Of a stretch of 51,329 bases of DNA, positions 7,375-27,131 are shown one piece after another; position 1 is the stretch's first letter; each line of letters starts with the position of its first letter. The stretch is from sequence record DRR378314_778, one strand, 5' to 3'. The notes below the pieces were generated by a model. It did no database searches. It saw only the letters and a list, made by a program, of their open reading frames with translations, and was not told the origin of the DNA. Made by a program: the position numbers and the translations under genes.

Positions 7375-7548
7375 CAGTGACCGGAACAATATCAATTGCT
7401 TTTTTAAGTTTTATTCACAACAATTGGGTTCGTCAATCGGGGAATGACAGATATCTAGGCTTAAGGGGGGCATTTTGGGTCTAGGCTATCGACAAAGCTA
7501 GAGAGTTGACTATTTTCCGTATGTGAAAAAAATACAGATAGGTGCGTG

Positions 7549-8613: not shown

Positions 8614-8670
8614 AAAGGAAGCAGGGGATAACCTTGTGTGTGCTCAGGAATTTTAACAGAGGAGTAGACT

Positions 8671-9759: not shown

Positions 9760-9804
9760 GCTGTCAGAGACGTATATCCTTTGAGGATATTGAGTGTTGA
9801 AATA

Positions 9805-9839
9805 AAGCTGGCTGGGGCCGTCAGGGCGTCAGCCAGCTT
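9805..9839 (+). terminator. Intercistronic stem-loop after the SBP gene
   Basis: AAGCTGGCTG...CAGCCAGCTT 10-bp stem with no U-tail. Confidence 0.5.
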
Positions 9840-9860
9840 GGTAAAGTAAAGTGAGGCGGA

Positions 9861-11752: not shown

Positions 11753-12555
11753 GCGCACGACTTAGCCGTATCCTGTTTTTCTGTTGCATCGCGTTCTTCA
11801 TGTTGCTGCCTGTCATCGTGGTTATCGGGGTGTCGGTCAATGAAAAGCAAAGCCTGACCTTCCCGCCCGAGGGCTTCTCACTCTCCTGGTACAGCCAGAT
11901 CTTTACGGATCCGGAATGGCGAAATGCACTAATCAATTCTTTGATCCTGGCTACCGGATCGGCTTTTCTGGCGGTATCAGTTGCTCTGCCGCTGGCTTGG
12001 TTCTTATGGCGGTATAAAGCCCCTTGGGCGCAGATTTTCCGACTTTTGGGGATTGCACCTTTTATCTTGCCACCGGTTATTACGGCGCTCGGCTTTTTGA
12101 CTTTCTGGGCGACAACGGGCCCCTATGGGGAGCCCTGGACCGCGATTATCAGCCATGGCATCTTTTTTGTGACCCTGCCGCTGGTCACCATCTCTCTTGG
12201 CTTTTCATCAATTGATGGGGAGCTGGTGGAGGCAGCCTCCACCATGGGTGCCAATGACCGGGCAATCTTTCGAACGGTAATTTTTCCGCTGATCCTGCCC
12301 TATATGATCTCAGGTTTTGCCTTTACCTTCGTGCTGTCGCTCAACGAATATATCGTTGCCTATATGACGGTAGGTTTCACGATGGAGACCTTACCGATCA
12401 AGATCTTCAATGCCCTCCGGTATGGATACACACCTACAATGGCGGCGGTCTCTTTCCTCTTTGTGGTGGTGGCGGCTGTTGTCTTTGGTCTGATTGCCCG
12501 CTTTGGCAATCTTCCCAAGTTGCTAGGCAATATGTCGGGGGAGGAGACAGAATGA
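11749..12555 (+). CDS. ABC permease (PotC-like)
   Basis: FPPEGFSLSWY, EAASTMGA, TLPIKIF; ATGA overlap. Confidence 0.92.
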   Translation: MSARLSRILFFCCIAFFMLLPVIVVIGVSVNEKQSLTFPPEGFSLSWYSQIFTDPEWRNALINSLILATGSAFLAVSVALPLAWFLWRYKAPWAQIFRLLGIAPFILPPVITALGFLTFWATTGPYGEPWTAIISHGIFFVTLPLVTISLGFSSIDGELVEAASTMGANDRAIFRTVIFPLILPYMISGFAFTFVLSLNEYIVAYMTVGFTMETLPIKIFNALRYGYTPTMAAVSFLFVVVAAVVFGLIARFGNLPKLLGNMSGEETE

Positions 12556-13337
12556 AGCTCGCCCTCTCGCAAATGCGCAGCACAAATGGAACGATTGCCA
12601 ATAATCTTGACCGCCTGATTGCCAGCACAGAGGCAGCAGCAGACGCCAACGCCGATCTTATCCTGTTTCCGGAGCTGGCTCTTTGCGGTTATGGCAGCGG
12701 TGATGCCTTCAATAGCCTTGCGCTCAGCGTCAATAGCGCTGAAATTACCCATCTGCAATCGGTTGCTGATCATCTTGATATCTCTCTTGTAACCGGTTTT
12801 GCGGAAAAGTCCGCAGCGCAGGTATTTAACAGTGCGATCTGCCTGCAGCCCGGAAAAGAGCCGCAGATCTACCGGAAAACCTGCCTTTATGGGGATTATG
12901 AAAAATCTCATTTTGCGGCGGCTCCGGCAGCTACCTGCCTGTTTGATTGCGGCGGTGTCCGGGTGGGGCTGCTGATCTGCTATGATGTTGAATTCCCAGA
13001 AAATGTCCGGCGGCTCGCCTTGGCCGGGGCGGACTTGATCGCTGTCCCAACAGCCTTGCCAGGCAGTGATCACAGCGATCTTATCGCCCGCAAATTGCTA
13101 CCCGTTCGGGCTTTTGAAAATCAGGTTTTTGTCGCCTATGCCAACTTGTCGGATAATGGTGACGAATTTTCCTATTACGGGCATTCAGGGATCTTTGCCC
13201 CTGACGGTCAGGCATTGAGCTTGGCAGGCGCAGGGGAGGAGCTGATTTTTGCAAAAATTGATGTGAAAGTCTTTGCCCAATCTCGAGCTGAAAATCCGTA
13301 TCTTGCAGATCTGGATGCCCTGGTCGGGTTGGATTGA
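12552..13337 (+). CDS. Carbon-nitrogen hydrolase (nitrilase superfamily amidase)
   Basis: Glu-Lys-Cys triad: FPEL, YRK, ICYDVEFPE. Confidence 0.92.
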   Translation: MKLALSQMRSTNGTIANNLDRLIASTEAAADANADLILFPELALCGYGSGDAFNSLALSVNSAEITHLQSVADHLDISLVTGFAEKSAAQVFNSAICLQPGKEPQIYRKTCLYGDYEKSHFAAAPAATCLFDCGGVRVGLLICYDVEFPENVRRLALAGADLIAVPTALPGSDHSDLIARKLLPVRAFENQVFVAYANLSDNGDEFSYYGHSGIFAPDGQALSLAGAGEELIFAKIDVKVFAQSRAENPYLADLDALVGLD

Positions 13338-13392
13338 GGGAGCTTGCAGGCCGGTTTTTGACAGCAAGGCTTGACTTTCCCCGCAAATCATT

Positions 13393-13410
13393 GATTTTCA
13401 GTTGAAAATC
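13393..13410. promoter_or_regulatory. Palindrome GATTTTCA-GT-TGAAAATC upstream of purU; candidate operator over a CTTGAC-type promoter
   Basis: 8-bp perfect arms, 15 bp before the purU ATG; CTTGAC at 13370-13375 is a plausible -35. Confidence 0.45.
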
Positions 13411-13425
13411 TCTCGGAGAACCGAA

Positions 13426-14310
13426 ATGTCCAGCTATATTTTGACTGTTAAATGCTTATCCCGCCGCGGCATCGTATCCGCTATTTCTACCAAATTGACT
13501 GAAAATGGCTGTAACATCACGGATTCTGCGCAATTTGATGATCCCGAAACGGGCAATTTCTTTATGCGAACGAGTTTTAACTCTGAAACCGGAACTAGCC
13601 TGGCGGAGCTAAAATCAGCGTTTGCAAGTATAGTTGATAGTTTCGAGATGGAACTCACCCTTAATGATGCTGCGGATCGGCCCAAGGTGTTGTTAATGGT
13701 GTCCAGTTTCGGCCATTGCCTCAATGACCTGCTATACCGCTGGAGAATTGGGGCGCTGCCGATTGAAATTGTCGGAGTGGTTTCCAATCACATGACCTAT
13801 CAGAAGACGGTCGTGAATTACGATCTGCCCTTTTACCATATCAAGGTTACCAAAGACACCAAGCCTGAGGCCGAAGCCCGGCTGTTGGAAGTGGTTGAAG
13901 AAACCGGAACGGATCTGGTGGTCCTTGCCCGTTACATGCAGGTCCTCTCCGATCAGTTATGTCAGAAGCTGGCCGGTCGCGTCATCAACATCCACCATTC
14001 GTTCCTGCCCAGTTTTAAAGGCGCAAACCCTTATAAACAGGCGTATCAGCGGGGGGTGAAGCTAATTGGCGCAACGGCTCATTATGTGACGACTGATTTG
14101 GATGAAGGTCCGATTATCGAGCAGGATGTGGTCCGTGTGACCCACGCGCAGTCGTCTGAAGATTACGTCAGCCTCGGCCGGGATGTGGAGGCACAGGTGC
14201 TGGCGCGGGCCATTCATGCTCATATCCACCACCGGGTCTTCATAAACGGATTGAAAACCGTTGTTTTCCCGGCCAGCCCCGGCTCTTTCGCGTCAGAGCG
14301 AATGGGCTAA
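13426..14310 (+). CDS. purU: Formyltetrahydrofolate deformylase
   Basis: ACT N-domain, HCLNDLLYR, LARYMQVLS, INIHHSFLPSFKGANPYKQA, LDEGPIIEQ. ATG 13426 after GGAGA. Confidence 0.96.
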   Translation: MSSYILTVKCLSRRGIVSAISTKLTENGCNITDSAQFDDPETGNFFMRTSFNSETGTSLAELKSAFASIVDSFEMELTLNDAADRPKVLLMVSSFGHCLNDLLYRWRIGALPIEIVGVVSNHMTYQKTVVNYDLPFYHIKVTKDTKPEAEARLLEVVEETGTDLVVLARYMQVLSDQLCQKLAGRVINIHHSFLPSFKGANPYKQAYQRGVKLIGATAHYVTTDLDEGPIIEQDVVRVTHAQSSEDYVSLGRDVEAQVLARAIHAHIHHRVFINGLKTVVFPASPGSFASERMG

Positions 14311-14374
14311 TCCAATGGTTTCGGTAACGGGTGGTGACAGCAGTATAAAGTCTTAGTGGTGAAGGAAGAATAAT

Positions 14375-15085
14375 ATGATCAATAAAGTCAGTCCGTCGGT
14401 CTCGGCGGTGATTTCCCGGATCGAGGATGGCGCGACCATCATGATCGGCGGCTTTGGAGAGGCGGGTAGCCCGATTGAGCTGATCCACGCGCTCATCGAT
14501 AAAGGCACCAAAGGCCTGACCGTCATCAATAATAACACAGGCAATGGCGAAGTTGGCCTTGCCGCCCTGATTGGCGCGGGTCAGGTGAAAAAAATGATCT
14601 GCAGCTATCCCCGATCCTCTCATTCCAAAGTTTTCCCGGAACTGTATCGGGCCGGCAAGATCGAACTGGAACTGGTGCCTCAGGGAACGTTGGCAGAACG
14701 CATTCGCGCAGGCGGGGCGGGCATTCCGGCGTTCTATACGCCAACCAGTGTGGGAACACCGCTTGCTGACGGCAAAGAAGTTCGGGAAATCAAGGGCCGG
14801 GACTATGTGCTGGAATACGGGCTGACCGCAGACTTTGCATTGATCCGGGCGGAACAGGCGGATCCTCTTGGCAACCTGACATATTATAAGGCTGCCCGTA
14901 ATTTCGGCCCCATCATGGCCATGGCAGCGTCCACCACACTTGTTCAGGCGCGCAAAATCGTCGCGGCGGGAGAGATCGACCCTGAAGTTGTCGTCACCCC
15001 CGGTCTGTTTGTCGATCAAGTGGTGGAGGTGCCAAATCCCGCCATGGAGTCCCAACTGATTAAACAGGGAGTAACCTACCCATGA
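14375..15085 (+). CDS. pcaI: 3-oxoacid (3-oxoadipate-type) CoA-transferase subunit A
   Basis: IGGFGEAGSP, NNTGNGEVGLAAL, PQGTLAERIRAGGAGIPAFYT. Confidence 0.85.
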   Translation: MINKVSPSVSAVISRIEDGATIMIGGFGEAGSPIELIHALIDKGTKGLTVINNNTGNGEVGLAALIGAGQVKKMICSYPRSSHSKVFPELYRAGKIELELVPQGTLAERIRAGGAGIPAFYTPTSVGTPLADGKEVREIKGRDYVLEYGLTADFALIRAEQADPLGNLTYYKAARNFGPIMAMAASTTLVQARKIVAAGEIDPEVVVTPGLFVDQVVEVPNPAMESQLIKQGVTYP

Positions 15086-15774
15086 GTGATACCCAGGTAA
15101 AACAGGGCCTTACCCGGCCCCAAATGGCATGGCGTGCCGCTCAGGATCTGGTCGATGGATCGATTGTCAATCTGGGCATTGGCATTCCGGAAATGGTGGC
15201 GGACTTTGTTCCCGGTGATCGTCAGATTATTTATCATACAGAAAACGGTATTCTGGGCTTTGGCCCGCGCCCGGCTGAAGAAGATGAAGATCCGGATCTG
15301 ATTAATGCGGGTAAAAAGCCGGTGTCCCTGCTTCCCGGGGCGAGCTTTTTTCATCATGCGGACAGCTTTGCCATGATCCGGGGTGGTCATCTGGATTACT
15401 GTATTTTGGGCGCGATGCAGGTCTCCCAGGATGGAAACCTTGCCAATTGGTCAACCGGTGCGCCGGGTGCGATCCCCGCAGTTGGCGGGGCCATGGATCT
15501 GGTCGCAGGTGTTCCCAATGTCTTTATCATCACAGATCATGTGACCCGCGATGGGCAACCCAAATTGATGAAAGCCTGTACGTATCCCCTGACGGCTGTT
15601 GGGGTGGTGAAGCGGGTGTTTACCGATTTTGGCGTGTTTGATGTGACATCCAATGGTTTCCAGATCACAGAGATTGCCCCCGGTCTCATGCTGGAGGAAG
15701 TCATCGCCAAGACCGATGCCGATCTTGAAGTCCCTGATCGTCTGAAGACTATGGAGATCCCGGCAGCTCTTTAA
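15082..15774 (+). CDS. pcaJ: 3-oxoacid CoA-transferase subunit B
   Basis: VNLGIGIP, TENG (active-site Glu), DLINAGK, MIRGGHLD, VGGAMDL. Confidence 0.85.
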   Translation: MSDTQVKQGLTRPQMAWRAAQDLVDGSIVNLGIGIPEMVADFVPGDRQIIYHTENGILGFGPRPAEEDEDPDLINAGKKPVSLLPGASFFHHADSFAMIRGGHLDYCILGAMQVSQDGNLANWSTGAPGAIPAVGGAMDLVAGVPNVFIITDHVTRDGQPKLMKACTYPLTAVGVVKRVFTDFGVFDVTSNGFQITEIAPGLMLEEVIAKTDADLEVPDRLKTMEIPAAL

Positions 15775-15792: not shown

Positions 15793-15826
15793 GGCGGTGA
15801 GCCGTGTTCGGGCTCATCGCCGTTTT
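15793..15826 (+). terminator. Intrinsic terminator between convergent pcaJ and XRE gene
   Basis: GGCGGTGAGCC-loop-GGCTCATCGCC followed by GTTTT. Confidence 0.7.
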
Positions 15827-15828
15827 GG

Positions 15829-16704
15829 TTATTTGACAAATCCTTTTAAAGCTTCGATCTCCCGGGCGGATTGTTCCGGCCCGACCTTGGCGATCCGGAT
15901 CAGATGATCAAAATGTTTGGTAAGTCTTCGGATATGTTCGACCGAATGGACCACCAGATAAAGATTTCCCAGATAAACTACAGCCCGAAGCGGGCCGAAC
16001 AGGGTATAAGGCGCCGAATTGACTGAGTGCTGATCAAACAGAAACAGTCGGAATGTCGGATAGAATTTGTCCAGCAGATCAATCATGTGATCCAGTTGCT
16101 TGGTCCGGATTCCTGGCGCCAGATCCCGCCAAATGCCTTCTCCGCGGGCAAATTGTTCCAACGTCTGCAAGGGCATGCAGACTTCCATATCGGTTTCTGG
16201 ATAGGGGGTGTCGGACAATTGTTTTTTTGCCTGCTTGTCCTGAGCTTCCCGTAAATCCAGTTCATAGGGTTCAAATTCGTAAGCACTGACCTCCTCAATG
16301 CGAAGCAAATCCGGGATTGTGCTGGGGATATATCGGATTTTATAGCCAAAGGCTTCTTTGTGCCATTCCATCAGTTTTTCGGTTGCCGCATCACCGCCCA
16401 GTTGCAGGGTTTCCACGGTTGTCGCCCGGTCTTCACTTTCTTTTTCCGTTGCCACAATGCCCAGCAGCCAATCCAGTGAGACACCGCATTCCCGGGCGAT
16501 GGCATATAGCGTTTCTGCACGGGGTAGGCGGGCTGACTCCGGGGCGAGAAACTGGCTGAGGGCAGATCTGTCAATTCCGATGGATTTTGAAAACTGGCTC
16601 AGGTTATAGCCGCGCTGGGATATCAGCAGCGCCATCCGGTCCCGGAAAATTGCGGCTATGTCCCTTTTGTCTGCATTTCCTGATGGGGTTTGTTGTGAAT
16701 GCAC
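15829..16704 (-). CDS. XRE-family HTH regulator with long C-terminal sensor domain
   Basis: LSQFSKSIGIDRSALSQFL...RLPRAETL...VSLDWLLG HTH; divergent from the desaturase-MttB operon. Confidence 0.85.
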   Translation of the reverse strand: MHSQQTPSGNADKRDIAAIFRDRMALLISQRGYNLSQFSKSIGIDRSALSQFLAPESARLPRAETLYAIARECGVSLDWLLGIVATEKESEDRATTVETLQLGGDAATEKLMEWHKEAFGYKIRYIPSTIPDLLRIEEVSAYEFEPYELDLREAQDKQAKKQLSDTPYPETDMEVCMPLQTLEQFARGEGIWRDLAPGIRTKQLDHMIDLLDKFYPTFRLFLFDQHSVNSAPYTLFGPLRAVVYLGNLYLVVHSVEHIRRLTKHFDHLIRIAKVGPEQSAREIEALKGFVK

Positions 16705-16835
16705 ACCAATTTTCCTATTAGTTTACAAAAATAACATTTGATATCGTTTTTTCATTATAATGTTCTTATTCTCACATTGTCTATATGGCATTTGACGCGC
16801 ATTCTCTTGGCTCAGCTCAACCAAGAGGATGAAAA

Positions 16836-17741
16836 GTGAAATTTACCGAAAGTTCTGAGTGGCTTACACTCGTTTTGAATCTCAGTTGTTACAGTTTTCT
16901 GGGCATTCTGGTTTTTGCGCCCTTAAGCCTTCCCGTCATCTTCCAGATCCTGGCGCTAATCCCGCTTTTGACGCTGCATTCCTCCTTGCAGCATGAAGCC
17001 CTGCATGGTCACCCATTTAAGGCTCAATGGCTTAATGACGCGCTGGTGTTTTTGCCCGCCGGATTACTGACCCCGTATTTCCGGTTCAAGGATACGCATA
17101 CCCGTCATCATAATAACGCCTTCATTACCAACCCTTTTGAAGATCCGGAAAGCTTCTATCAATCAGCGGCGCGGTTTTCGGCACGCCCCCAGTGGCAGCA
17201 AAAAATGTTCCAACTCAACAACACCCTGTTGGGCCGGTTGATAATAGGCCCCGCGATGTCTGCGGTTGGCTTCGCCGCTTATGAGGTGCAGTCCGGCGGC
17301 CGCCGTGTCCAATTGACCTGGGCACTTCATCTGGTGGTGGTTGCAGGCCTGCTGGTCATGATTTCCGCTTTTGGCCAACTGCCTTTATGGGCCTATCTGG
17401 TCGCTGCTTATTTTGGATATTCGCTTCTCATGCTTCGGACTTTTCTGGAGCATCAGGCCCATACCGATATCGATGCCCGGTCCGTTATTATCGCCGATCG
17501 TGGTTTGCTGAGCCTTCTGTTTCTCAACAATAATTTTCACATTCTGCATCACACGCGCCCGGGTGTTCCCTGGTATCGGCTGCCCAGCCTCTATGATCGT
17601 GATCCTGAGGGGTGGCGCGCCCGAAATCAGGGGTATTTTTACCGCAACTATTCTGAGGTGATCGCCCGCTATCTGCTCTCTGAAAAGGAGCCGGTCGCCT
17701 TTCCGGATGAACCCCGCTCACAGTCGAAAGTCGCTTCATGA
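16836..17741 (+). CDS. Membrane-bound diiron enzyme of the fatty acid desaturase superfamily
   Basis: Three His boxes HEALH, HTRHH, HILHH plus FLEH; several TM segments. Confidence 0.88.
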   Translation: MKFTESSEWLTLVLNLSCYSFLGILVFAPLSLPVIFQILALIPLLTLHSSLQHEALHGHPFKAQWLNDALVFLPAGLLTPYFRFKDTHTRHHNNAFITNPFEDPESFYQSAARFSARPQWQQKMFQLNNTLLGRLIIGPAMSAVGFAAYEVQSGGRRVQLTWALHLVVVAGLLVMISAFGQLPLWAYLVAAYFGYSLLMLRTFLEHQAHTDIDARSVIIADRGLLSLLFLNNNFHILHHTRPGVPWYRLPSLYDRDPEGWRARNQGYFYRNYSEVIARYLLSEKEPVAFPDEPRSQSKVAS

Positions 17742-18541
17742 AGCCGGGATTAATCTCACTGCCGATGTATAACTGGCCAGAGCTGAGGAGCGCTCATGAT
17801 CACCTGTTTGATCGGCTCAGGCAGGCGCTTGGCGATGCGGGCTTTGCCGTTTCAGATCAATTCTCTCATCCTACCGATTTACACCGCCATTGGCGGGACC
17901 CGGATTTATTGTTGTCGCAAACCTGCGGGTTGCCTTATCAGACTTTAAAGACCCATGGCGTGCAGATTGTGGGCACGCCGGTTTATCTGATCGACTGCCC
18001 GCCAGGATATTACACCAGCAATATTGTCATTCGAAAAGGATCAGGGATTGCCGGATCCGGTGATCTGAAAGACCGGGTTTTCGCCTATAACGATCGTCAC
18101 TCACAATCAGGCTGGGCAGCGCTATTATATGCGCTTGCCTTGGGGGGAGATGGCTGCCCGGATTTCCAGAGGTCTCTGGAAACGGGTAGTCATCGCGCCT
18201 CGCTTCAGGCCGTATCGGAAGGTCGGGCCGATTTTGCAGCGATAGATTGCGTCACTTATGCCCATGCGGTGCAGTATGAACCGGCGACCGAAAATCTGCA
18301 GATCCTGATGCAGACACCGGCGACACCCGGCCTTCCGTTGATCACCGCTATGCGCGATACAAGTCAACTCAGCCGTCTGCAGGGGGCGGTGGAAGTGGCG
18401 CTGATCAATCTGGATCCCGCTGTAAAAGAGGCGCTGCTGCTGAACGGGTTCAAACGGTTTTCATCAGAAAAATATAATGTGATTGCTGAACGTCTGGACT
18501 TTGCGATGGGAAAGTTTGAGTATATCAGAGAAGTATCATAG
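17738..18541 (+). CDS. PhnD/SsuA-fold substrate-binding-like protein without signal peptide
   Basis: SLPMY, SQTCGLPY, SQSGW, TGSHRASLQAVSEGRADFAAID. No hydrophobic leader; ATGA-coupled to the desaturase. Confidence 0.8.
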   Translation: MKPGLISLPMYNWPELRSAHDHLFDRLRQALGDAGFAVSDQFSHPTDLHRHWRDPDLLLSQTCGLPYQTLKTHGVQIVGTPVYLIDCPPGYYTSNIVIRKGSGIAGSGDLKDRVFAYNDRHSQSGWAALLYALALGGDGCPDFQRSLETGSHRASLQAVSEGRADFAAIDCVTYAHAVQYEPATENLQILMQTPATPGLPLITAMRDTSQLSRLQGAVEVALINLDPAVKEALLLNGFKRFSSEKYNVIAERLDFAMGKFEYIREVS

Positions 18542-18561
18542 AGCTATAGGGGGGCGATCCG

Positions 18562-20094
18562 ATGACGGGACGGGTAAGGCGGAAAAGGGACCGGCGGATT
18601 TCGCGGTCAGGGTCAGGCTTGCAACAACTTCCCTGGTCGCCTTTAAAATCACCCTATAAACCATTTGAAATCCTCTCCGAAGATCACCTTCATGCGATCA
18701 CTGATGCGGCCTATCAGGTGCTAGAAGAGGTCGGTATGGATATCCTTCGGGAGGAGGCGCGCGATCTGTTTAAAAAAGCTGGCGCCCTTGTTGAAGGGGA
18801 TCGGGTCCGGATTGGCCGGGAGATCATTCAGGCGGCAATGGCCACAGCACCCTCAGAAATCATGCTTCATGCCCGAAATCCGGATCATACCCTCAATATG
18901 GCGCCGGGAACCATCAGTTTTGGATGTGTTGCCTCCGCCCCGAATGTCAGTGACCTGACCGGCGGCCGCCGGGTTGGTAATCAGGAAGATTACCGTAAAT
19001 TTCTCAAACTCTGCCAATCTCTTAATATCATCCACTTCCTGGGGGGGTACCCGGTGGAGCCGGTGGATCTACACCCGCGCACCCGGCACCTGGACTGCAT
19101 TGCCGATATGGCCCAGCTGACGGATAAATTCTATCATGCTTATGCCCTTGGGCAGGAGCGGATTACCGATGCGCTGGAAATTACCCGGATTGCCCATGGC
19201 TGTAACAGTTGGGCGGAATTTGATCAAAAAGTCCGCCTGTTCACCATCATCAATACGTCCAGCCCGTTGCGTCTGGACGGGGTCATGATCGATGGCGCGT
19301 TTGAAATGGCCCGTCATAATCAGCTTTGTGTCATTACCCCTTTCACACTTGCCGGGGCGATGGCGCCGGTGACGGTTGCGGGCGCCCTTGTACAACAGCA
19401 TGCCGAAGCCCTGGCTGGAATGGCAATGCTGCAGCTGTTTAATCCGGGCACACCCGTGGCTTACGGTGGGTTTACCTCCAACGTTGATATGAAATCGGGC
19501 TCGCCGGCTTTTGGAACACCTGAAAACGCGCAGGCGGCTTTGATCGGTGCGCAGCTCGCCCGCCATCTGAAGGTTCCCTATCGGTCCTCCAACGCCAACG
19601 CATCCAACTGTGTGGACGCACAAGCGACCTATGAAAGCCAGATGTCTATCTGGTCCGTCATCATGGGTCAGGCCAACATGGTGATGCATGCGGCAGGCTG
19701 GCTGGAAGGGGGGCTATGCGCCTCCTTTGAAAAGCTGATTTTGGATGCGGAAATGCTGCAGATGATGGTCAAGTTTCTGCAACCCCCCGATGTCAGTACC
19801 AGCGAGCTGGGGCTGGATGCCATTTCCGATGTCGGGCCGGGTGGGCATTATTTCGGTACGGCCCACACGCTCGCACGATATGAAACGGCTTTTTACGCGC
19901 CCATACTTTCTGACTGGAGCAATTTTGAAAGCTGGTCGGGGACCAGTCGCTCGGCAACCGAACGGGCTCATGACGTTTATCAGGCGCTGCTCGGCGAATA
20001 TGTGGAGCCGCAATTGGATATAGCCAGAAAAGAGGAAATTGTGACCTTTGTTGCCAAGCGACACGAGGAAGGTGGTGTGGACGGCGATTTTTGA
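18562..20094 (+). CDS. MttB-superfamily (trimethylamine methyltransferase family) protein, non-pyrrolysine, MtgB-like
   Basis: INTSSPLRLD, TPFTLAGAMAPVT, GGFTSNVDMKSGSPAFGTPE, HAAGWLEGGL; no in-frame amber codon. Confidence 0.92.
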   Translation: MTGRVRRKRDRRISRSGSGLQQLPWSPLKSPYKPFEILSEDHLHAITDAAYQVLEEVGMDILREEARDLFKKAGALVEGDRVRIGREIIQAAMATAPSEIMLHARNPDHTLNMAPGTISFGCVASAPNVSDLTGGRRVGNQEDYRKFLKLCQSLNIIHFLGGYPVEPVDLHPRTRHLDCIADMAQLTDKFYHAYALGQERITDALEITRIAHGCNSWAEFDQKVRLFTIINTSSPLRLDGVMIDGAFEMARHNQLCVITPFTLAGAMAPVTVAGALVQQHAEALAGMAMLQLFNPGTPVAYGGFTSNVDMKSGSPAFGTPENAQAALIGAQLARHLKVPYRSSNANASNCVDAQATYESQMSIWSVIMGQANMVMHAAGWLEGGLCASFEKLILDAEMLQMMVKFLQPPDVSTSELGLDAISDVGPGGHYFGTAHTLARYETAFYAPILSDWSNFESWSGTSRSATERAHDVYQALLGEYVEPQLDIARKEEIVTFVAKRHEEGGVDGDF

Positions 20095-20150
20095 TCACTA
20101 AACGGCGAAAGATCGACGGTGATCCGGTTTAGAACGGGGATGATAGTTGA

Positions 20151-21458
20151 ATGACCAAAACTTATGATGCCATCATTATTGGCGCAGGTGTGATTGGCAC
20201 CTGCACGGCGTTGGAGCTGGCCAGGAAAGGCTGGCGAACCCTCTCGATCGAGAAAAACCCGGCCGCCGGCTATGGGTCGACCTCAAACTCCTGCTCTATC
20301 ATCCGCACCTATTATTCGGCGTTTGAAACCTGTGCGTTGGCCTATGAAGGCTGGCATCACTGGCGGCGCTGGTCTGATTATCTGGGTGTGCTGGACGATC
20401 GGGGGATGATCGAATATCGGGAAACCGGTTGCATGGTGATCAAAACCGCCCAAAACCATAACCTGACCCGGGTGTGCGAAACCATGACGAAAATCGGCTG
20501 CCCCTACACAGAGCTTAGCACCGAAGAAATTCACGACTATCTGCCGATTGTGGATACGCATCAGTTCTACCCTGCCAAACGCCTGGACGATGATGGCTTT
20601 GGCGAACCGACGGGCGCTGCTGTTGCCGGGGCGGTGTATTTTCCTCGTGGCGGCTATGTCAATGATCCGCAACTGGCCGCCCATAATGCCCAGGTCGCGG
20701 CCCAAGCCAGCGGCGCGGATTTTCTGTTCAAGTCAGAAGTTGCTGAAATTCGCCAAAAAGACGGCCGTGTCTCTGGCGTTACCTTATCCGATGGGCAGAT
20801 GATTGACGCCCCTGTGGTGATTAACGTCGCCGGTCCGCATTCATCCAAAATCAATGCGATGGCCGGGGTAGCGGGCAAGATGGCGATGTCCACCCGGGCC
20901 TTGCGCCACGAAGTGGCCCATGTGCCCGCGCCAGATGGCTTTGATTATGAGAAAAACGGTCTTGTCTATTCCGATAGTGACGTGGCCGCTTATTGCCGGC
21001 CGGAGACGGGCAATAACATGCTGATCGGGTCGGAAGATCCGGCTTGTGACGACAAGGAATGGGTGGATGATCCGGATAATTTTGATGAGAATTTTTCTGC
21101 CCAGTGGAACACGCTTGTCATGCGCATGGCGCAGCGCTTTCCCAATCTTCGGATCCCATCCAAAACCCTGGGGGTTGTCGCGCTTTATGACGTGACCGAG
21201 GATTGGATGCCGATCTATGACAAAAGTGATTTGCCCGGTTTTTACATGGCCGTTGGCACCAGTGGAAATCAGTTTAAGAACGCCCCCGTTGCCGGAAAAT
21301 TGATGACCCGGCTGGTGGAAGCCTGTGAAGCCGATCATGATCATGACGCGGCCCCGCTGGATTTTCATCTGTCGCATATTGATAAAACGATCTCCCTCGG
21401 GGTGTTTTCCCGAAATCGGCAGATCAATCCAAACTCCAGCTTTACTGTGATTGGATAA
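20151..21458 (+). CDS. FAD-dependent oxidoreductase, sarcosine oxidase beta/DadA-like
   Basis: IIIGAGVIG, GYGSTSNS, LYDVTEDWMPI, GTSGNQFKNAP. Confidence 0.88.
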   Translation: MTKTYDAIIIGAGVIGTCTALELARKGWRTLSIEKNPAAGYGSTSNSCSIIRTYYSAFETCALAYEGWHHWRRWSDYLGVLDDRGMIEYRETGCMVIKTAQNHNLTRVCETMTKIGCPYTELSTEEIHDYLPIVDTHQFYPAKRLDDDGFGEPTGAAVAGAVYFPRGGYVNDPQLAAHNAQVAAQASGADFLFKSEVAEIRQKDGRVSGVTLSDGQMIDAPVVINVAGPHSSKINAMAGVAGKMAMSTRALRHEVAHVPAPDGFDYEKNGLVYSDSDVAAYCRPETGNNMLIGSEDPACDDKEWVDDPDNFDENFSAQWNTLVMRMAQRFPNLRIPSKTLGVVALYDVTEDWMPIYDKSDLPGFYMAVGTSGNQFKNAPVAGKLMTRLVEACEADHDHDAAPLDFHLSHIDKTISLGVFSRNRQINPNSSFTVIG

Positions 21459-21462
21459 TTTC

Positions 21463-23886
21463 ATGCAAAATCACAAACGTGTCATTGTCATTGGGGGTGG
21501 GGTCGTCGGCTGTTCCGTCCTTTATCACCTGACCAAGTTGGGGTGGACAGATATTCTGCTCATTGAACGCTCTGAACTGACCTCCGGCTCCACCTGGCAT
21601 GCGGCGGGCGGCTTTCACACCCTGAACGCGGATACCAATATGGCGGCGCTGCAGGGTTATACCATTCGCCTTTATAAGGAGCTGGAGGAAATCACGGGTC
21701 AATCCTGTGGTTTGCATCATGTGGGCGGGTTGACCCTTGCCACCAGTGAAGAGCGGATGGATTTCCTCAAAGCGGAGCGGGCCAAGCATCGCTATATGGG
21801 TCTTGAAACCGAATTGGTGGGGCCAGAGGAAATTCGCAAACTCTCTCCCATTACGAATACGCAAGGGGTGATCGGCGCCTTATACGATCCGCTGGATGGG
21901 CATCTGGATCCGTCCGGCACTACCCATGCCTATGCCAAGGCTGCCCGCATGGCCGGGGCACAAATCAGCCTTAGAAATCCGGTTCTGGAATTAAGTCCCC
22001 AACGCGATGGTCACTGGGAAGTGGTGACAAAAGACGGCACCTGGAGCGCGGAACATGTGGTTAATGCCGGGGGGCTTTGGGCCCGGGAAATCGGCCAACT
22101 GGTTGGCGCCTATTTTCCCCTTCACCCGATGGAGCATCAGTATCTGGTGACAGAGGATGTTCCCGAAGTCGTGGATTTAGGGCGGGAACTTCCGCATGTG
22201 ATGGATCCGGAAGGCGAAAGTTATCTGCGGCAGGAAGGGCGCGGGATCTGTATTGGTTTTTATGAACAGCAGTGTGATCCCTGGGCCGTTCGCGGAACCC
22301 CGCATGATTTCGGACATGAATTGCTGAACGATAATCTGGACAGGATCGGGGACTCGCTGGCCTTCGCGTTTAAGCGTTTTCCGGTGTTGGAACGGGCCGG
22401 GATCAAAACCATCATCAATGGGCCGTTTACCTTTGCCCCGGATGGGAATCCGTTGGTTGGCCCTGTTCCGGGCCTTCGCAATTTCTGGTCGGCCTGCGCG
22501 GTTATGGCAGGGTTTTCCCAAGGCGGTGGTGTCGGCCTGACCCTTGCGGAATGGATGGTCGAGGGGGAACCATCCCGCGATGTTTATGCCATGGATGTGG
22601 CGCGGTTCGGGGATTGGATCACCCCCGGATATACCCGGGAAAAAGTCCGTGAAAATTATCAGCGGCGGTTCTCAGTCTCTTATCCGAACGAGGAATTGCC
22701 CGTCGCCCGCCCGCAGCAAACGACCCCTGCCTATGGGATTTGGAAAGAGCAACGGGCAGTCTTTGGCGCGGCTTATGGCATGGAAGCCGTTAATTATTTC
22801 GCATCGGAGGGGGAGCCGCTTAAGGAAACCCCCAGCTTTCGGCGCAGCAATGCTTTTAAGGCAGTTGCCGCAGAATGCCGCGCGGTCCGCGAAGCCGTCG
22901 GCATTAACGAGGTGCACAATTTCGGCAAATACCAGATCACGGGATCCGGTGCAAGGAGCTGGCTGGATCAAATCATGGCCGGGCGTATTCCAAAACCGGG
23001 CCGTATGGCCCTCAATCCCATGTTGAGCCCGGCGGGGAAACTTCTCGGGGATTTCACTGTTTCCTGCCTGACTGAGGAGCGGTTTCTGGTGACGGCTTCT
23101 TTCATGATGCAGGCCATTCATATGCGCTGGTTTGAACAGCATTTGCCTGCCGACGGATCGGTCCGGGTGGAGAATATCTCAACCCGCAGCCTTGGCTTCC
23201 AAATCGCCGGGCCCAATGCCCGCGCGCTGTTATCACGGGTTGCGTTTGAGGATGTCTCGCCAGAAGCCTTTAAATTCCTCGATGTGAAGGAAATGAGCGT
23301 CGGCGCGACCCAGGCGTTGATCCAGCGGGTCACCTATACGGGGGATTTGGGCTATGAAATTTATGTCTGCCCCGAAGAACAGATCACCCTTTATGAAACG
23401 CTGACGGCGGCGGGCGCCGACTTAGGGCTCAAACCTTTTGGAATGCGCGCTATGATGAGCTTGCGGCTCGAAAAATCTTTCGGCTCATGGGGCCGGGAAT
23501 TTCGCCCTGATTATCTGCCGATGGAAACGGGTATGGACCGGTTCATGCGCTATGATAAACCGGTGGATTTTGTCGGCAAAAGAGCTGCTCTGGCGGAAAA
23601 AGCAGCAGGGCCGGATCGTCGACTTTGCACATTCATCGTTGATGCCAATGACGCCGACGTTTGGGGGGATGAGCCGATCTGGCATAATGGAAATGTGGTT
23701 GGTTTCGTGACGTCTGGCGGATATGCCCATTATGTCCAAAAATCAGTGGCGTTTGGGTTCCTGCCTGCCGATCTGGCCCGCCACAGCGCATTTGAGGTGG
23801 AAATTGAGATTTTAGGCACCCGTGTATCGGCGACATCCTATGATGCACCGCTTCTGGATCCAGAAGGCCGGCGCATGATGGGTTGA
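21463..23886 (+). CDS. Dimethylglycine/sarcosine dehydrogenase-like protein (FAD domain plus GcvT folate-binding domain)
   Basis: VIGGGVVG, TSGSTWHAAG, NGPFTFAPDGNP, YTGDLGYEI, LRLEK, VTSGGY. ATG 21463. Confidence 0.93.
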   Translation: MQNHKRVIVIGGGVVGCSVLYHLTKLGWTDILLIERSELTSGSTWHAAGGFHTLNADTNMAALQGYTIRLYKELEEITGQSCGLHHVGGLTLATSEERMDFLKAERAKHRYMGLETELVGPEEIRKLSPITNTQGVIGALYDPLDGHLDPSGTTHAYAKAARMAGAQISLRNPVLELSPQRDGHWEVVTKDGTWSAEHVVNAGGLWAREIGQLVGAYFPLHPMEHQYLVTEDVPEVVDLGRELPHVMDPEGESYLRQEGRGICIGFYEQQCDPWAVRGTPHDFGHELLNDNLDRIGDSLAFAFKRFPVLERAGIKTIINGPFTFAPDGNPLVGPVPGLRNFWSACAVMAGFSQGGGVGLTLAEWMVEGEPSRDVYAMDVARFGDWITPGYTREKVRENYQRRFSVSYPNEELPVARPQQTTPAYGIWKEQRAVFGAAYGMEAVNYFASEGEPLKETPSFRRSNAFKAVAAECRAVREAVGINEVHNFGKYQITGSGARSWLDQIMAGRIPKPGRMALNPMLSPAGKLLGDFTVSCLTEERFLVTASFMMQAIHMRWFEQHLPADGSVRVENISTRSLGFQIAGPNARALLSRVAFEDVSPEAFKFLDVKEMSVGATQALIQRVTYTGDLGYEIYVCPEEQITLYETLTAAGADLGLKPFGMRAMMSLRLEKSFGSWGREFRPDYLPMETGMDRFMRYDKPVDFVGKRAALAEKAAGPDRRLCTFIVDANDADVWGDEPIWHNGNVVGFVTSGGYAHYVQKSVAFGFLPADLARHSAFEVEIEILGTRVSATSYDAPLLDPEGRRMMG

Positions 23887-24115: not shown

Positions 24116-24135
24116 TAGAAATCCATGGCAATTTG

Positions 24136-25203
24136 ATGACCTCCCTCAGCAAGGCGATCCCGATAACAGTATTGACCGGTTTTTTAGGGAGCGGCAAGAC
24201 GACCTTGCTATCCAACCTGCTCCGTCAACCAGCCTTTCAAAATACAGCGGTCCTGATCAATGAATTTGGCGAAGTGGGTCTCGATCATGGCCTTATCGAG
24301 CAAAGCGAAGAAACCGTGGTGGAGCTGCAAAACGGCTGTATTTGCTGTACCATTCGGGAAGATCTGCAGAAAACCCTGCTGAAGTTGATCGGTGATGTTC
24401 AAAGCGGACGCATTCAATCTGTGGATCGCGTTGTGATTGAAACCACGGGACTTGCGGATCCCATACCGATCCTGCAGACAATTATCCATGACCGGGATCT
24501 ATATCGGGTTTTTGAATTGGCTGGGGTGATCACGGTTGTCGATGGGATCAACGCCACGGAAACATTAAGCCAGTTTGAAGAAGCCCGCCGCCAGGTCCTG
24601 GTGGCTGACAGCCTCGCCATTTCCAAAAGCGATTTGATGCGCCCGGACGAGCTCGATCAAATGTACCAAAATTTACAATCCCAGAACCCGCTTGCAGACA
24701 TTTGGGTGGTTGATCAGGGACAATTGAAACCGGGCTGGTTGGCGCGGGCAGCGCCGGCGCCGGTGGCGATGATCTCGTCTCCTGTGCAGGAATTGATGGG
24801 AACGCCAGCTATCCCCCACTCCCATGATCATAGGTTGGATCATGCGGGGCATGGCCAGTCAATCAACCGGCATGGCACGGATATTGAGGCGTTTTCACTG
24901 GTTGTGGATCAACCGATCAGCCCCATCGCGTTCAGCTTCTTTCTCGATATGGTCTCGGCGGAAATGGGACCGGATCTTTTGCGGGTCAAAGGTCTTGTCA
25001 ATCTGGCAGGAGAGATGCGCCCCGCCCTTATTCAAGGGGCGCAGCAGGTGTTTCACCCTGTGCGGTGGCTCGACCTATGGCCTGATAATGATACGCGAAC
25101 CCGGCTGGTCTTCATCACCCGGTTGAAGGTCAAGGATCGCATCCAAACGCTTTTTACGGCGCTGACCTCGGTGACCCCGGCACCAGCGGCCGGATTCTGC
25201 TGA
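24136..25203 (+). CDS. CobW/COG0523 G3E GTPase metallochaperone, His-rich
   Basis: TGFLGSGKTT, NEFGE, NGCICC, IETTGLADP, HSHDHRLDH and CobW_C (LLRVKG). Start ATG 24136 or TTG 24133. Confidence 0.92.
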   Translation: MTSLSKAIPITVLTGFLGSGKTTLLSNLLRQPAFQNTAVLINEFGEVGLDHGLIEQSEETVVELQNGCICCTIREDLQKTLLKLIGDVQSGRIQSVDRVVIETTGLADPIPILQTIIHDRDLYRVFELAGVITVVDGINATETLSQFEEARRQVLVADSLAISKSDLMRPDELDQMYQNLQSQNPLADIWVVDQGQLKPGWLARAAPAPVAMISSPVQELMGTPAIPHSHDHRLDHAGHGQSINRHGTDIEAFSLVVDQPISPIAFSFFLDMVSAEMGPDLLRVKGLVNLAGEMRPALIQGAQQVFHPVRWLDLWPDNDTRTRLVFITRLKVKDRIQTLFTALTSVTPAPAAGFC

Positions 25204-25215
25204 ATTTAAAAAATA

Positions 25216-25235
25216 TTAGTTACGTTATAACATAA
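25216..25235. promoter_or_regulatory. Second Zur box TTAGTTACGTTATAACATAA
   Basis: Reverse complement contains ATGTTATAACGTAAC; same motif as 24095-24115, in the short gap before the porin-like gene. Confidence 0.7.
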
Positions 25236-25255
25236 TGAATACAAAGGTAAGTCAA

Positions 25256-26464
25256 ATGAAGAAGTTACGTCTGCTGGGAATTTCCCCGCTCCCTTTTCTG
25301 TTGATGTTTGCGGCGGGCTCCGCAGTTGCCGCCGGTAGCGGTCATGATCATGACCACGACCATGGCCATGGACACGATCACGGGCATGATCATAGTGCCC
25401 ATTCGGATGAGGCTGAAAGTGGCTTTTACGCGCATGTTCATGTCACCGTGTATGGCGACAGCATTATCGATGCGGAGGAATCGGACGAAGAGTTTAACGA
25501 AGCCTACAGCCACTCCCATCTGGATATGGGATATCGCTTTGGCGGTGGTTTTTCCGTCAACTCGACCGTTAAACTGGAAGGTGGCCCCAGCGGTCATGAT
25601 CACGGGCATGGCGGCGGCGGTGGGCATGCCGACGGCTCCGACAAGTTTTTTGAGGATCATCCTTTGCTCGTGGAGACTTTGACTGTCAATTATGACACCC
25701 AATATTTTTCGGTTTTCGGGGGAAAGTTTAATCCGGTGGTTGGCTTTGATTATCACAGCTTTCCCGGTATCTACGGATATCAGAGCATTGAGGAACATGC
25801 CATCCGGGAGCGAATTGGCTTTGGCGGTGCGGTGAAACTACCAACTGCCGATTTTGGCTCTCATCGTTTGGATATCAGTACTTTTTTTGCCGATACAACG
25901 ATCTTGAGTGACTCTCTCCTGTATGAACGGGGGCAGACGGATCTGGAGGATGGCGGTCTTGCCAACACAGAGGATTTTTCCTCTTTCAGTCTGTCCTTGG
26001 GCGGGCGCGATATTCCCGTTTTGACCCAGCAGCCGGGCACAGGTCTGTCTTACCGCTTTGGATACGCCCGCCAGGCCGAAGGTGAGGGCGGGGAGGCGTC
26101 TGAAACCCGTTTTTCCACTTCCGTTGGGTATCGGTATCAATTTACGGATATGATAGCGGCCAACTTAATTGGGGAGCATATGAACATCCGCCATCTGGGC
26201 GGGGAAGCCGCTCATGATCGCAGCTTCACAACTGGGGGCTTGCGTTTTGATTATGGCCAATGGAACTTTGGCACCACCTACACCTATATTGCCAATGATG
26301 CAGACGAAGCCGATGAGGATATCAATGGCAGTATTTTTCAAGCATCCATTGGGTATAATTTCCTGAACGGGTTTGAAGTGGGTCTGGGCTATAAGCGTGC
26401 TGATGAAGAAGATGAGGTAACCGAACGGATCGGCGTGCTTATCGGGTATTCCTATGAGTTCTGA
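25256..26464 (+). CDS. His-rich outer-membrane beta-barrel (porin-like) protein
   Basis: Sec signal (MKKLRLLG...SAVA), HDHDHDHGHGHDHGHDH tract, second His tract, amphipathic beta-strands, acidic loops, C-terminal IGYSYEF beta-signal. ATG 25256 after AAGGT preferred; 25235 overlaps the Zur box. Confidence 0.75.
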   Translation: MKKLRLLGISPLPFLLMFAAGSAVAAGSGHDHDHDHGHGHDHGHDHSAHSDEAESGFYAHVHVTVYGDSIIDAEESDEEFNEAYSHSHLDMGYRFGGGFSVNSTVKLEGGPSGHDHGHGGGGGHADGSDKFFEDHPLLVETLTVNYDTQYFSVFGGKFNPVVGFDYHSFPGIYGYQSIEEHAIRERIGFGGAVKLPTADFGSHRLDISTFFADTTILSDSLLYERGQTDLEDGGLANTEDFSSFSLSLGGRDIPVLTQQPGTGLSYRFGYARQAEGEGGEASETRFSTSVGYRYQFTDMIAANLIGEHMNIRHLGGEAAHDRSFTTGGLRFDYGQWNFGTTYTYIANDADEADEDINGSIFQASIGYNFLNGFEVGLGYKRADEEDEVTERIGVLIGYSYEF

Positions 26465-27131
26465 GAGCTGGCCTGAAAAGTTTCCGCAGTCAGTTCCGAT
26501 TGAACGGGGGATATGCGCCCCCGTTCAGATGATCAATAGCGCGCTGCAACTTGATGAAATCCAGGATCAACAGACGTCTCTTCTTTTATGGCGCCGATCA
26601 CTCCCCCAGCAGATCCAGGACTGGATCGCCGAAGTGGTCCTGATGGAGGTTGACAATATCCGTTTTGAGACACGACCGAAAGATTTGAAGCGGCGTCTGA
26701 CAAAAGAATTCAAAGACCGATCGCTTCCTCAGACAGCGGGCGCCACCGGGTTCATTGAGGATGTGACAAATCTGGTGGCGGCCTTTGCCGGGGCGGCGAA
26801 AACTTCGATGACCCAAGTCCGGCTGAAATGGATTGACGGCGATGCCTGTTGGAAATTTCATTGGGATTATGTGACACATCGGCTGGTCACAACATATTCC
26901 GGACCCGGAACAGAATGGGTGCTGCCGATATATTCGCGCCAGGCTGTCGCCCAGCAGCAAGCCTATGCCGGTCCCCTGGAATATCTGGACGTAGGAGATG
27001 TGGCCCTGTTCAAGGGGTGTCGCAACAATTCTGAAGACGGCATTGTGCATCGGTCTCCACCCTTGTCAGGCCACAGACAAAACCGTCTGTTTCTATGTCT
27101 GAATGTGGCCCGGCAGGTGCGCTGGGGGTAA
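26454..27131 (+). CDS. DUF1826 family protein
   Basis: CWKFHWD, RLVTTYSGPGTEW, DVALFKG, VHRSPP, RLFL signature; family commonly found beside COG0523 genes. Confidence 0.85.
   Translation: MSSESWPEKFPQSVPIERGICAPVQMINSALQLDEIQDQQTSLLLWRRSLPQQIQDWIAEVVLMEVDNIRFETRPKDLKRRLTKEFKDRSLPQTAGATGFIEDVTNLVAAFAGAAKTSMTQVRLKWIDGDACWKFHWDYVTHRLVTTYSGPGTEWVLPIYSRQAVAQQQAYAGPLEYLDVGDVALFKGCRNNSEDGIVHRSPPLSGHRQNRLFLCLNVARQVRWG

Follow-up and report, generated by a model that had tools for sequence, protein, structure and literature searches.

An uncharacterised module of a desaturase-like membrane enzyme, a leaderless PhnD-fold protein and an XRE regulator beside MttB-type demethylation genes

The window analysed here is the whole 51,329 nt stretch of sequence record DRR378314_778, and the locus studied occupies its positions 15,829 to 23,886 (Table 1). 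According to the list of open reading frames (ORFs) and a Pfam scan, the locus consists of five plus-strand genes divergent from a minus-strand gene for an XRE-family regulator. The five genes encode a desaturase-like membrane enzyme (here DES), a PhnD-fold protein, an MttB-superfamily methyltransferase, a DAO-family oxidase and an enzyme resembling dimethylglycine dehydrogenase (DMGDH). As regards demethylation, the locus holds a variant of the MtgBCD-type pathway (PMC12478193); the module formed by DES, the PhnD-fold gene and the XRE gene is uncharacterised. The start of the PhnD-fold gene overlaps the stop of DES by 4 nt (spacing -4), and the next two spacings are 20 and 56 nt. The DMGDH-like gene follows the DAO gene after 4 nt with the ATG at 21463, or overlaps it by 8 nt with the alternative TTG start at 21451. 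No strong terminator is seen inside the five genes in a search for terminator-like sites over 15.6-24.4 kb. The strongest such site in that range, a hairpin, separates the XRE gene from the CoA-transferase B gene that converges on it, at the boundary of the unit and the end of the upstream operon. Judged from their spacing, the five genes are likely co-transcribed. The preliminary description of this DNA had listed the same co-oriented genes, gaps and divergent regulator, including a His-box membrane diiron enzyme, a non-pyrrolysine (non-Pyl) MttB and a DMGDH-like enzyme, and had noted that the cluster holds no ferredoxin or reductase; all of this is borne out by the ORF list, the domain matches and the His boxes.

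Table 1. Features of the locus in DRR378314_778, and aromatic-amino-acid-lyase family genes that lack the Ala-Ser-Gly (MIO) motif in related loci (L numbers; positions are those of the respective locus)
Feature	Position	Strand	Remarks
G+C-rich hairpin with T tail	15793..15821	+	11-pair stem, 8 G-C pairs
XRE-family regulator	15829..16704	-	Pfam HTH_19/HTH_3, N-terminal helix-turn-helix
Divergent control region	16705..16835	.	two inverted repeats and one promoter-like site for the regulator gene; consensus matches only
Inverted repeat 1	16727-16738/16759-16770		within control region 16705..16835
Inverted repeat 2	16800-16815/16816-16831		16+16 nt, no spacer, directly before the DES start codon
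DES, FA_desaturase-family diiron protein	16836..17741	+	PF00487 E 6e-36; GTG start
Leaderless PhnD/AioX-family type-II binding-protein fold	17738..18541	+	PF12974 (Phosphonate-bd) E 2e-20
MttB-superfamily methyltransferase, non-pyrrolysine	18562..20094	+	PF06253 (MTTB) E 4.5e-188
FAD-dependent amine oxidase/dehydrogenase, DAO family	20151..21458	+	PF01266 E 8e-50; sarcosine-oxidase-beta-like / N-methyl-amino-acid oxidase-like
DMGDH-like enzyme	21463..23886	+	DAO + FAO_M + GCV_T + GCV_T_C; E 1e-67 to 8e-15
MIO-less lyase	L123 9928-11403		motif region GASD; directly downstream of DES; genome without MttB
MIO-less lyase	L165 1551-2978		directly downstream of the PhnD-fold gene
MIO-less lyase	L156 10710-12248		motif region GVAD; after DAO and ornithine-cyclodeaminase-family genes
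MIO-less lyase	L189 3782-5308		motif region deleted; upstream of XRE; near-copy in L190, small exonuclease gene between
MIO-less lyase	L230 827-2521		motif region deleted; upstream of XRE

DES carries the hallmark of the fatty-acid desaturase superfamily, three His boxes (HEALH at residues 53-57, HTRHH at 88-92, HILHH at 235-239) on a four-helix membrane core. The three boxes and the motif EHQAH are invariant among 121 homologues; the further invariant residues E54, D103, E105, R134, R201, E205, R215 and K284 are largely charged or polar. The structural model (pLDDT 91, pTM 0.90) contains long helices at residues 6-27, 34-56, 156-179 and 184-205. By sequence and model, DES is a predicted integral-membrane diiron oxygenase of the fatty-acid desaturase/AlkB-like superfamily. 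Among solved folds, the nearest is one subunit in the Orf2971/Ycf2-FtsHi motor complex of algae (TMq 0.61-0.64); AlkB and SCD1 come next. Both NCBIfam matches are weak, namely the CrtR hydroxylase (35.7 versus a cut-off of 475 bits) and GntB (21 versus 380 bits); the latter, named L-arginine hydroxylase by NCBI, is at 21 bits a weak precedent for a polar substrate. Look-ups in a protein atlas gave solely clusters named 'fatty acid desaturase' and 'PhnD/SsuA/transferrin'. Lipid desaturation by DES is unlikely; the genes around it rather suggest a soluble amine. DES shares the His-box diiron membrane fold with AlkB-AlkG, SCD1 and GntB, but it scores far below the equivalog cut-offs and its locus has no rubredoxin, ferredoxin, Rieske or cytochrome b5 partner nearby; from 11.7 to 29 kb of the window, the Pfam scan detects no domain of a ferredoxin, a rubredoxin or a reductase. 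RtxC and MocD are members of the membrane diiron family that act on polar small molecules. We know of no binding-protein-fold neighbour for AlkB-AlkG, SCD1, GntB, RtxC or MocD. Homologues of DES with 36-39% identity occur on rhizobial plasmids of Rhizobium acidisoli (L160) and Sinorhizobium fredii (L161). Their neighbours are sulfur-scavenging genes, i.e. LLM monooxygenases, the FMN reductase MsuE and taurine, sulfonate and sulfate ATP-binding cassette (ABC) transporters. The Sinorhizobium fredii plasmid also encodes a PhnD/SsuA-family protein and a protein with a gamma-butyrobetaine-hydroxylase-like domain within 9 kb of the DES homologue.

The first conserved strand motif of the PhnD-fold protein begins at residue 9, and a crude hydropathy test finds a hydrophobic N-terminus in none of 121 family members. 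For comparison, the window encodes five true periplasmic binding proteins; three of these scored at least 2.0, at the top of or above the range of the PhnD-fold family (maximum 2.09), and the remaining two (Tat or atypical) scored lower or were mis-started. The protein is leaderless and would therefore be cytoplasmic. Its closest solved relatives are AioX (E 4e-24), then ArrX, PtxB and PhnD, with which it has the same PF12974 fold and the common motifs SxSG, GHR and CG(Y/L)P, including the cysteine of the last. These relatives are exported and partner either a membrane kinase or an ABC transporter, whereas the present family is leaderless in 121/121 members and has no transporter partner; the Pfam scan detects no ABC permease or ATPase genes adjoining the PhnD-fold gene. 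Invariant residues are M10, W52, Q61, C63, G64, P66, Y92, N118, S122-G125, H152 and D170. The invariant or nearly invariant Y11, W13, W52 and Y92, together with D170, would suit a zwitterionic onium ligand. The family comprises 1299 representatives at E<=1e-30. Identity with the phosphonate-transporter protein PhnD (TIGR03431) was rejected (42.5 versus a cut-off of 261 bits, no leader, no adjoining ABC genes), and import of phosphonate or phosphite is likewise excluded for a protein with neither leader nor transporter genes; the preliminary description had been right to set phosphonate uptake aside and to call the protein free of export signal, permease and ATPase. A prediction of the complex of DES and the PhnD-fold protein, in which alignments were unused, scored 0.00 and counts neither way. 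Among 6148 candidates, three metagenome proteins of 560-614 aa (P0243, P0244, P0245) are apparent fusions of the two, and two of them carry both domains. They were rejected as Rosetta-stone evidence, being singletons whose PhnD part is broken by low-complexity, out-of-frame-looking stretches, and are probably frameshift or gene-calling artefacts. Locus L039 looked fused in its ORF list and is not.

The C-terminal domain of the XRE regulator is about 190 aa long and conserved in 14 homologues. Its model (pLDDT 78) has a weak phospholipase D (PLD)-like or TrmBL2-like fold in this domain, and the best Foldseek matches are TrmBL2, Nuc/NucT and PLD (TM 0.3-0.57). In the divergent control region, the inverted repeat at 16800-16831 could be an operator or a translational hairpin.

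The MttB frame runs through 510 aa without interruption and without an in-frame amber (Pyl) codon, and the enzyme is therefore of the non-Pyl form. The Pyl-type trimethylamine methyltransferase MttB (TIGR02369) was rejected at 278.6 versus 525 bits and for want of an in-frame UAG. A maximum-likelihood tree was built from 52 sequences, including 17 other paralogues from the same genomes that were picked among the top Pfam scorers and not randomly. A single clade (100/100) takes in all 34 MttBs encoded within 8 kb of a DES or PhnD-fold gene together with one unlinked copy, and is separate from these 17 paralogues; the linked MttBs fall in branches of only 51-58% identity. Pocket residues were mapped by alignment to PDB 9yce and then across the 52 MttBs. 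The glycine betaine site of D. hafniense MtgB (DhMtgB) comprises Tyr97, Phe356, Arg312 and His348; the aromatic pair Tyr97/Phe356 contacts the quaternary nitrogen, Arg312 and His348 bind the carboxylate, and the exchange Y97A raises Km from 0.88 to 320 mM (PMC13080624, JBC 2026, accessible part). The window MttB has Ala124 for Y97 and Gly384 for F356, so that the aromatic pair is absent, and R341 and H376 for R312 and H348. Tyr97 is the informative position of the pair because Phe356 is absent from the Tyr-type proteobacterial paralogues, too. This position is non-aromatic in 35/35 members of the linked clade (Ser 18, Ala 13, Gly 4) and Tyr in 16 of the 17 other paralogues. The equivalents of Arg312 and His348, the carboxylate-binding hallmark of MtgB, are kept in all 35. 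Arg312, not the aromatic pair, is also conserved in MttB members that use other acidic quaternary amines (PMC13080624, accessible part). The loss of Tyr97 together with the retained Arg and His points to such a substrate, and the compound for which the window MttB is specialised is probably an acidic quaternary amine that differs from glycine betaine. As for the betaine demethylation of the preliminary description, glycine betaine is probably not the compound concerned. In one genome (G319, L135 3565-5213), the module-adjoining MttB is matched in two pieces (61% and 46% identity) and may be broken or frameshifted.

The DAO oxidase remains below every NCBIfam cut-off (TIGR01373, sarcosine oxidase beta, 80.6 versus 529 bits), and the Pfam scan finds no soxADG genes with it; its earlier designation as SoxB-like is loose. 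Orthologues with 67-71% identity adjoin PhnD-fold genes in L003, L011, L020, L046, L156 and L223. The DMGDH-like enzyme combines a FAD domain with a folate-binding GcvT domain, and all four domains of dimethylglycine/sarcosine dehydrogenase-type enzymes are present. DMGDH-like genes adjoin the module in L001-L003, L007 and L233, and in L001-L003 they are orthologues of 80-83% identity in the same position. The MtgB/MtgC/MtgD system for aerobic glycine betaine demethylation in Ruegeria pomeroyi and other marine bacteria likewise has a non-Pyl PF06253 methyltransferase, often followed by dimethylglycine/sarcosine demethylation genes; in R. pomeroyi, the MttB-family proteins function with MtgC and MtgD, the corrinoid and pterin partners, whose genes lie away from theirs (PMC12478193, available part). 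The window MttB instead lacks the Tyr97 equivalent and belongs to a separate clade, and no corrinoid protein or methyl-corrinoid:tetrahydrofolate methyltransferase (mtgC, mtgD) is recognised by the Pfam scan within the 51-kb window. The DES, PhnD-fold and XRE genes are outside the described system; neither 'desaturase' nor 'phosphonate' occurs in the main text of PMC12478193, nor 'desaturase' in its supplements. Like the window MttB, the Eubacterium limosum enzymes MtpB (proline betaine), MtcB (carnitine), MtyB (gamma-butyrobetaine) and MthB (phosphocholine) keep the Arg312 equivalent and not the aromatic pair, a likeness taken from descriptions and not from aligned sequences; these systems are anaerobic and have adjoining corrinoid proteins (PMC13080624, accessible part).

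Conservation was followed in three samples: the 80 best genome loci for DES, analysed by tblastn and dominated by Rhodobacterales; an even draw of 401 alphaproteobacterial genomes, whose counts ignore kinship; and the 80 metagenome contigs that best match the PhnD-fold protein. Of the 401 genomes, 52 contain DES and 52 the PhnD-fold gene; 43 contain both genes and 340 neither. The two lie within 2 kb of each other in 30 of these 43. The window order, DES followed by the PhnD-fold gene, accounts for 10 of these 30 adjacent pairs. In the other 20, the PhnD-fold gene is encoded on the strand opposite to DES and upstream of it, and an XRE gene is detected between the two in 15 of them. In the 80 best DES loci, XRE lies divergently upstream of DES in 69, and the gene directly downstream is that of a PhnD-fold protein in 14 and of an EamA transporter in 50, all of the latter being of the Rhodobacterales type. 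Only three of them (L001, L002, L003) show the full five-gene layout of the window, and L011 shows part of it. Sneathiella, Curvivirga, Hoeflea and Kiloniella are among the genera in which the cluster, complete or partial, is seen. In the metagenome contigs, DES is directly upstream of the PhnD-fold gene in 31/80; of the remaining 49, 15 end too early on the upstream side for a judgement. When all ORFs of 29 sampled loci are clustered, only four recurrent families emerge, PhnD-fold, DES, XRE and MttB; the conserved unit is therefore the triad, which MttB often joins as a fourth member. The desaturase-PhnD pair of the preliminary description is thus a real and widely conserved unit, which however includes the regulator and in which the PhnD-fold gene follows the regulator in two thirds of the adjacent cases. 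A description of the DES/PhnD-fold/XRE module, or of a function for the pair, was not found in the full-text literature, as the preliminary description had anticipated; bioRxiv supplements and most subscription journals were outside this search. The Rhodobacterales layout is XRE divergent from DES, sometimes with a small DUF2061 protein before DES, followed by an EamA/DMT transporter (e.g. L162, plasmid of Phaeobacter sp. G2, 7729-10797), often beside a carnitine dehydrogenase operon. The PhnD-fold gene of these genomes is located elsewhere; a TerB-domain gene precedes it, and it is followed by a polar-amino-acid-type ABC transporter together with GATase or glutamine-synthetase-like genes (L150, L152, L154).

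Of the 30 adjacent DES/PhnD-fold pairs, 11 have an MttB gene in the fetched region of about 8 kb. Its relative position is of at least four kinds, among them downstream of the PhnD-fold gene, convergent with DES and upstream of DES. By a rough calculation, 15 MttB copies in a 4-Mb genome would place one within 16 kb in about 6% of cases, versus 11/30 observed. Pfam MttB occurs in 85 of the 401 genomes, namely in 42 of 52 DES-positive versus 43 of 349 DES-negative ones. A tie of the module to MttB beyond chance is thus supported.

Leads to the substrate come from genes near the module. The aromatic-amino-acid-lyase family is represented by 13 genes in 12 of the loci examined, and in six loci (five distinct) the lyase beside the module lacks the Ala-Ser-Gly motif (Table 1); those of L189/L190 and L230 lie about 0.25-0.7 kb upstream of XRE. 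The neighbourhood of the module also contains canonical HutH-type genes in four loci (L054, L135, L136 and L189), accompanied in L189 by a urocanase gene. MIO-less members of the family include ergothionase and the histidine-betaine trimethylammonia-lyase (preprint 10.1101/2025.08.13.670108, available part). The MIO-less lyases beside the module are by their motif regions probably trimethylammonia-lyases rather than HutH; that of L123 scores alike against HutH and ergothionase. With these lyases and the Hut genes beside the module, hercynine/ergothioneine is the best single candidate substrate, and amino-acid betaines of this type are the best candidate class, as a lead only. What links the module to the ergothionase and histidine-betaine pathways is the presence of MIO-less lyases beside it in five distinct related loci, along with neighbouring Hut genes, but the window has no such lyase, and demethylation of hercynine or ergothioneine by MttB is not described in the available part of the same preprint (10.1101/2025.08.13.670108). 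Demethylation by MttB and elimination of trimethylamine by the lyase would be alternative fates of histidine betaine. A sulfur connection that would suit ergothioneine is thin; the rhizobial DES homologues with their sulfonate, taurine and sulfate genes, as well as an LLM monooxygenase and a Cys/Met pyridoxal-phosphate enzyme beside the module in L140, are a possible sulfur link. A carnitine theme is seen in 24 of the 80 best DES loci, in which an operon of AraC, BKACE, carnitine dehydrogenase and SDR genes stands beside the XRE-DES-EamA unit; the AKR...XRE-DES-EamA synteny also occurs without the carnitine operon in many other loci. The R. pomeroyi cdh cluster SPO1435-1437 is induced on carnitine (PMC12478193, available part) and is followed by an 89-aa protein, not by the DES module. 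A role of DES as carnitine or gamma-butyrobetaine hydroxylase is the weaker candidate. Homarine was rejected as substrate, the published hom operon being without these families.

The surroundings of the locus contain further genes. The upstream plus-strand operon (7546-15774) encodes an arginase-family enzyme, a polyamine-type ABC transporter (SBP_bac_8, ATPase and two permeases), a CN-hydrolase, PurU and 3-oxoacid CoA-transferase A/B; PurU, a formyl-tetrahydrofolate deformylase, would suit folate-linked demethylation in the adjoining locus. On the 3' side (24133-27131) follow a CobW-family GTPase, a 409-aa protein with weak porin-like matches and a DUF1826 protein. The nearest NCBIfam models of this GTPase are the YjiA-type GTPase, CobW and ZigA, all below cut-off. 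A second CobW-family gene (42423-43340) adjoins an amidohydrolase. The CobW-family genes may serve metal (zinc or cobalt) delivery.

The reading that we prefer, with a probability of roughly 0.5, is that the locus serves the catabolism of an acidic betaine other than glycine betaine. Its core would be an old three-gene module of an XRE regulator with a PLD-like, sensor-type domain, DES and a cytoplasmic AioX/PhnD-like binder. The dedicated MttB would remove the first N-methyl group; as in the aerobic MtgBCD system, the acceptor would be a corrinoid protein whose gene lies elsewhere, and the DMGDH-like enzyme and the SoxB-like oxidase would then take the remaining methyls with tetrahydrofolate or O2. 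DES would perform one O2-dependent step on the same compound or near relatives, be it hydroxylation, desaturation or heteroatom oxygenation. The PhnD-fold protein would recognise the zwitterionic substrate and present it to DES or MttB, or report to the regulator. The single transcript, a soluble betaine and not a lipid as the substrate of DES, the order of the steps and the role of the binder are what we infer. The preliminary description had placed the pair at the head of a betaine-demethylation operon, as its entry step, and had proposed gene-neighbourhood analysis as a check. That analysis returns the co-occurrence with MttB beyond chance, not an obligate one; the five-gene layout is rare, flanks vary and MttB is absent near most loci. 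No result lends support to an entry step or to any order of reactions.

Several observations weigh against a betaine-catabolic role of the module, or against its histidine-betaine candidate. The fetched region holds no MttB in 19 of the 30 adjacent pairs, nor in any of 14 long-flank metagenome loci with DES before the PhnD-fold gene, and 10 of the 52 DES-positive genomes are without Pfam MttB (E<=1e-30); with none nearby in most loci and none in 10 genomes, the module is therefore not simply an accessory of MttB. The genome co-occurrence counts, as stated, ignore kinship. The non-Tyr MttB clade is broader than the linked copies, several paralogues of 45-59% identity being encoded elsewhere in the carrier genomes. 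No electron donor for DES is encoded nearby. Genes flanking the triad differ greatly between loci and include those for ABC importers and exporters, cytochrome bd, OmpA and glycosyltransferases, and the rhizobial DES homologues adjoin sulfonate and sulfate genes rather than amine genes. Linkage of the PhnD-fold gene to DES is mostly lacking in Rhodobacterales, where EamA follows DES instead and MttB lies 6-8 kb off behind unrelated genes, an arrangement that may be inherited synteny. As to histidine betaine, the 51-kb window contains no lyase or hut gene, the L189 and L230 lyases are far closer to HutH structures than to ergothionase, and the numbers behind the lead are small.

A bolder and rather unlikely version makes DES and the PhnD-fold protein a new two-part oxygenase, in which the binder, with its invariant Cys in the predicted site, would hand a polar amino-acid betaine, most likely ergothioneine or hercynine, to DES. 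The O2-dependent DES step would be, for example, S-oxygenation/desulfurisation or hydroxylation, and the product would go to the MttB clade, which would demethylate it to the amino acid, or to the MIO-less lyase. If true, this would define an undescribed aerobic route of histidine-betaine turnover in marine and soil bacteria.

That DES acts on lipids instead, as a desaturase, hydroxylase or ether-cleaving oxygenase, with a released or sensed lipid quaternary-amine head group (for instance of a betaine lipid or phosphatidylcholine) bound by the PhnD-fold protein and demethylated by MttB, appears improbable. It would suit the integral-membrane PF00487 enzyme with its four predicted helices and SCD1/AlkB-like folds, the weakly PLD-like domain of the regulator, and a PhnD-fold protein that keeps the oxyanion-type SQSG and HR motifs also present in proteins binding phosphite, phosphonate or arsenate; one MttB member, MthB, is specific for phosphocholine (PMC13080624, accessible part). 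A glycerophosphodiester phosphodiesterase (L231) and a CDP-alcohol phosphatidyltransferase (L222) stand beside the module, but these are single cases: only the triad and MttB are conserved among the 29 loci, and no lipase, acyltransferase or lipid-synthesis gene recurs. The invariant residues of DES outside the His boxes, largely charged or polar, also give the impression of something other than a plain acyl tunnel. Periplasmic AioX acts as co-sensor for the AioS kinase, and AioX and ArrX are, by their entry titles, sensor-associated binding proteins. These being the closest solved relatives of the PhnD-fold protein, the latter could be a cytoplasmic co-sensor for XRE, with DES as the regulated output (e.g. 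a membrane adjustment to osmolyte supply) and with MttB and the oxidases responding to the same signal. Such an arrangement, which we consider doubtful, fits the 20 of 30 adjacent cases in which the PhnD-fold gene lies on the regulator's strand upstream of DES (15 of them with the regulator between) and the separation of the two genes in Rhodobacterales. It fits less well with the joining of the PhnD-fold gene to DES in the window and in 10 of the 30 sampled genomes, or with a regulator that has a large conserved C-terminal domain of its own. The position directly before MttB or DAO in the window, L001-L003, L011, L020, L046, L134, L163 and L223 suits an enzyme partner equally.

Very unlikely is an ordinary glycine-betaine operon of MtgB, DMGDH and sarcosine oxidase type, in which DES and the PhnD-fold protein would be passengers kept by synteny. 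The sequence MttB, DMGDH and sarcosine-oxidase-type enzyme is the exact glycine betaine route (PMC12478193, available part), PurU lies 2.5 kb upstream, and the module occurs in many unrelated contexts. The clade of the window MttB is, however, never aromatic at the Tyr97 position, and the proximity of module and MttB exceeds the chance figure and recurs in several gene orders; together with MttB branches of 51-58% identity, these gene orders argue against mere inherited synteny.

Methylated nitrogen osmolytes are major carbon, nitrogen and methyl-group currencies in the sea, and the aerobic cobalamin-dependent route of their demethylation was reportedly recognised only in 2025. To our knowledge, marine Alphaproteobacteria hold many MttB paralogues without known substrates, and we know of no earlier case of a desaturase-family membrane enzyme travelling with a binding-protein-fold partner. 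One MttB paralogue clade can now be diagnosed by a residue (no Tyr97), has its fixed partners in the regulator, the membrane oxygenase and the cytoplasmic binder, and comes with a shortlist of candidate substrates; its function is therefore directly testable. If the hercynine/ergothioneine lead is true, the module would belong to a new branch of thiol-histidine and trimethylamine biology.

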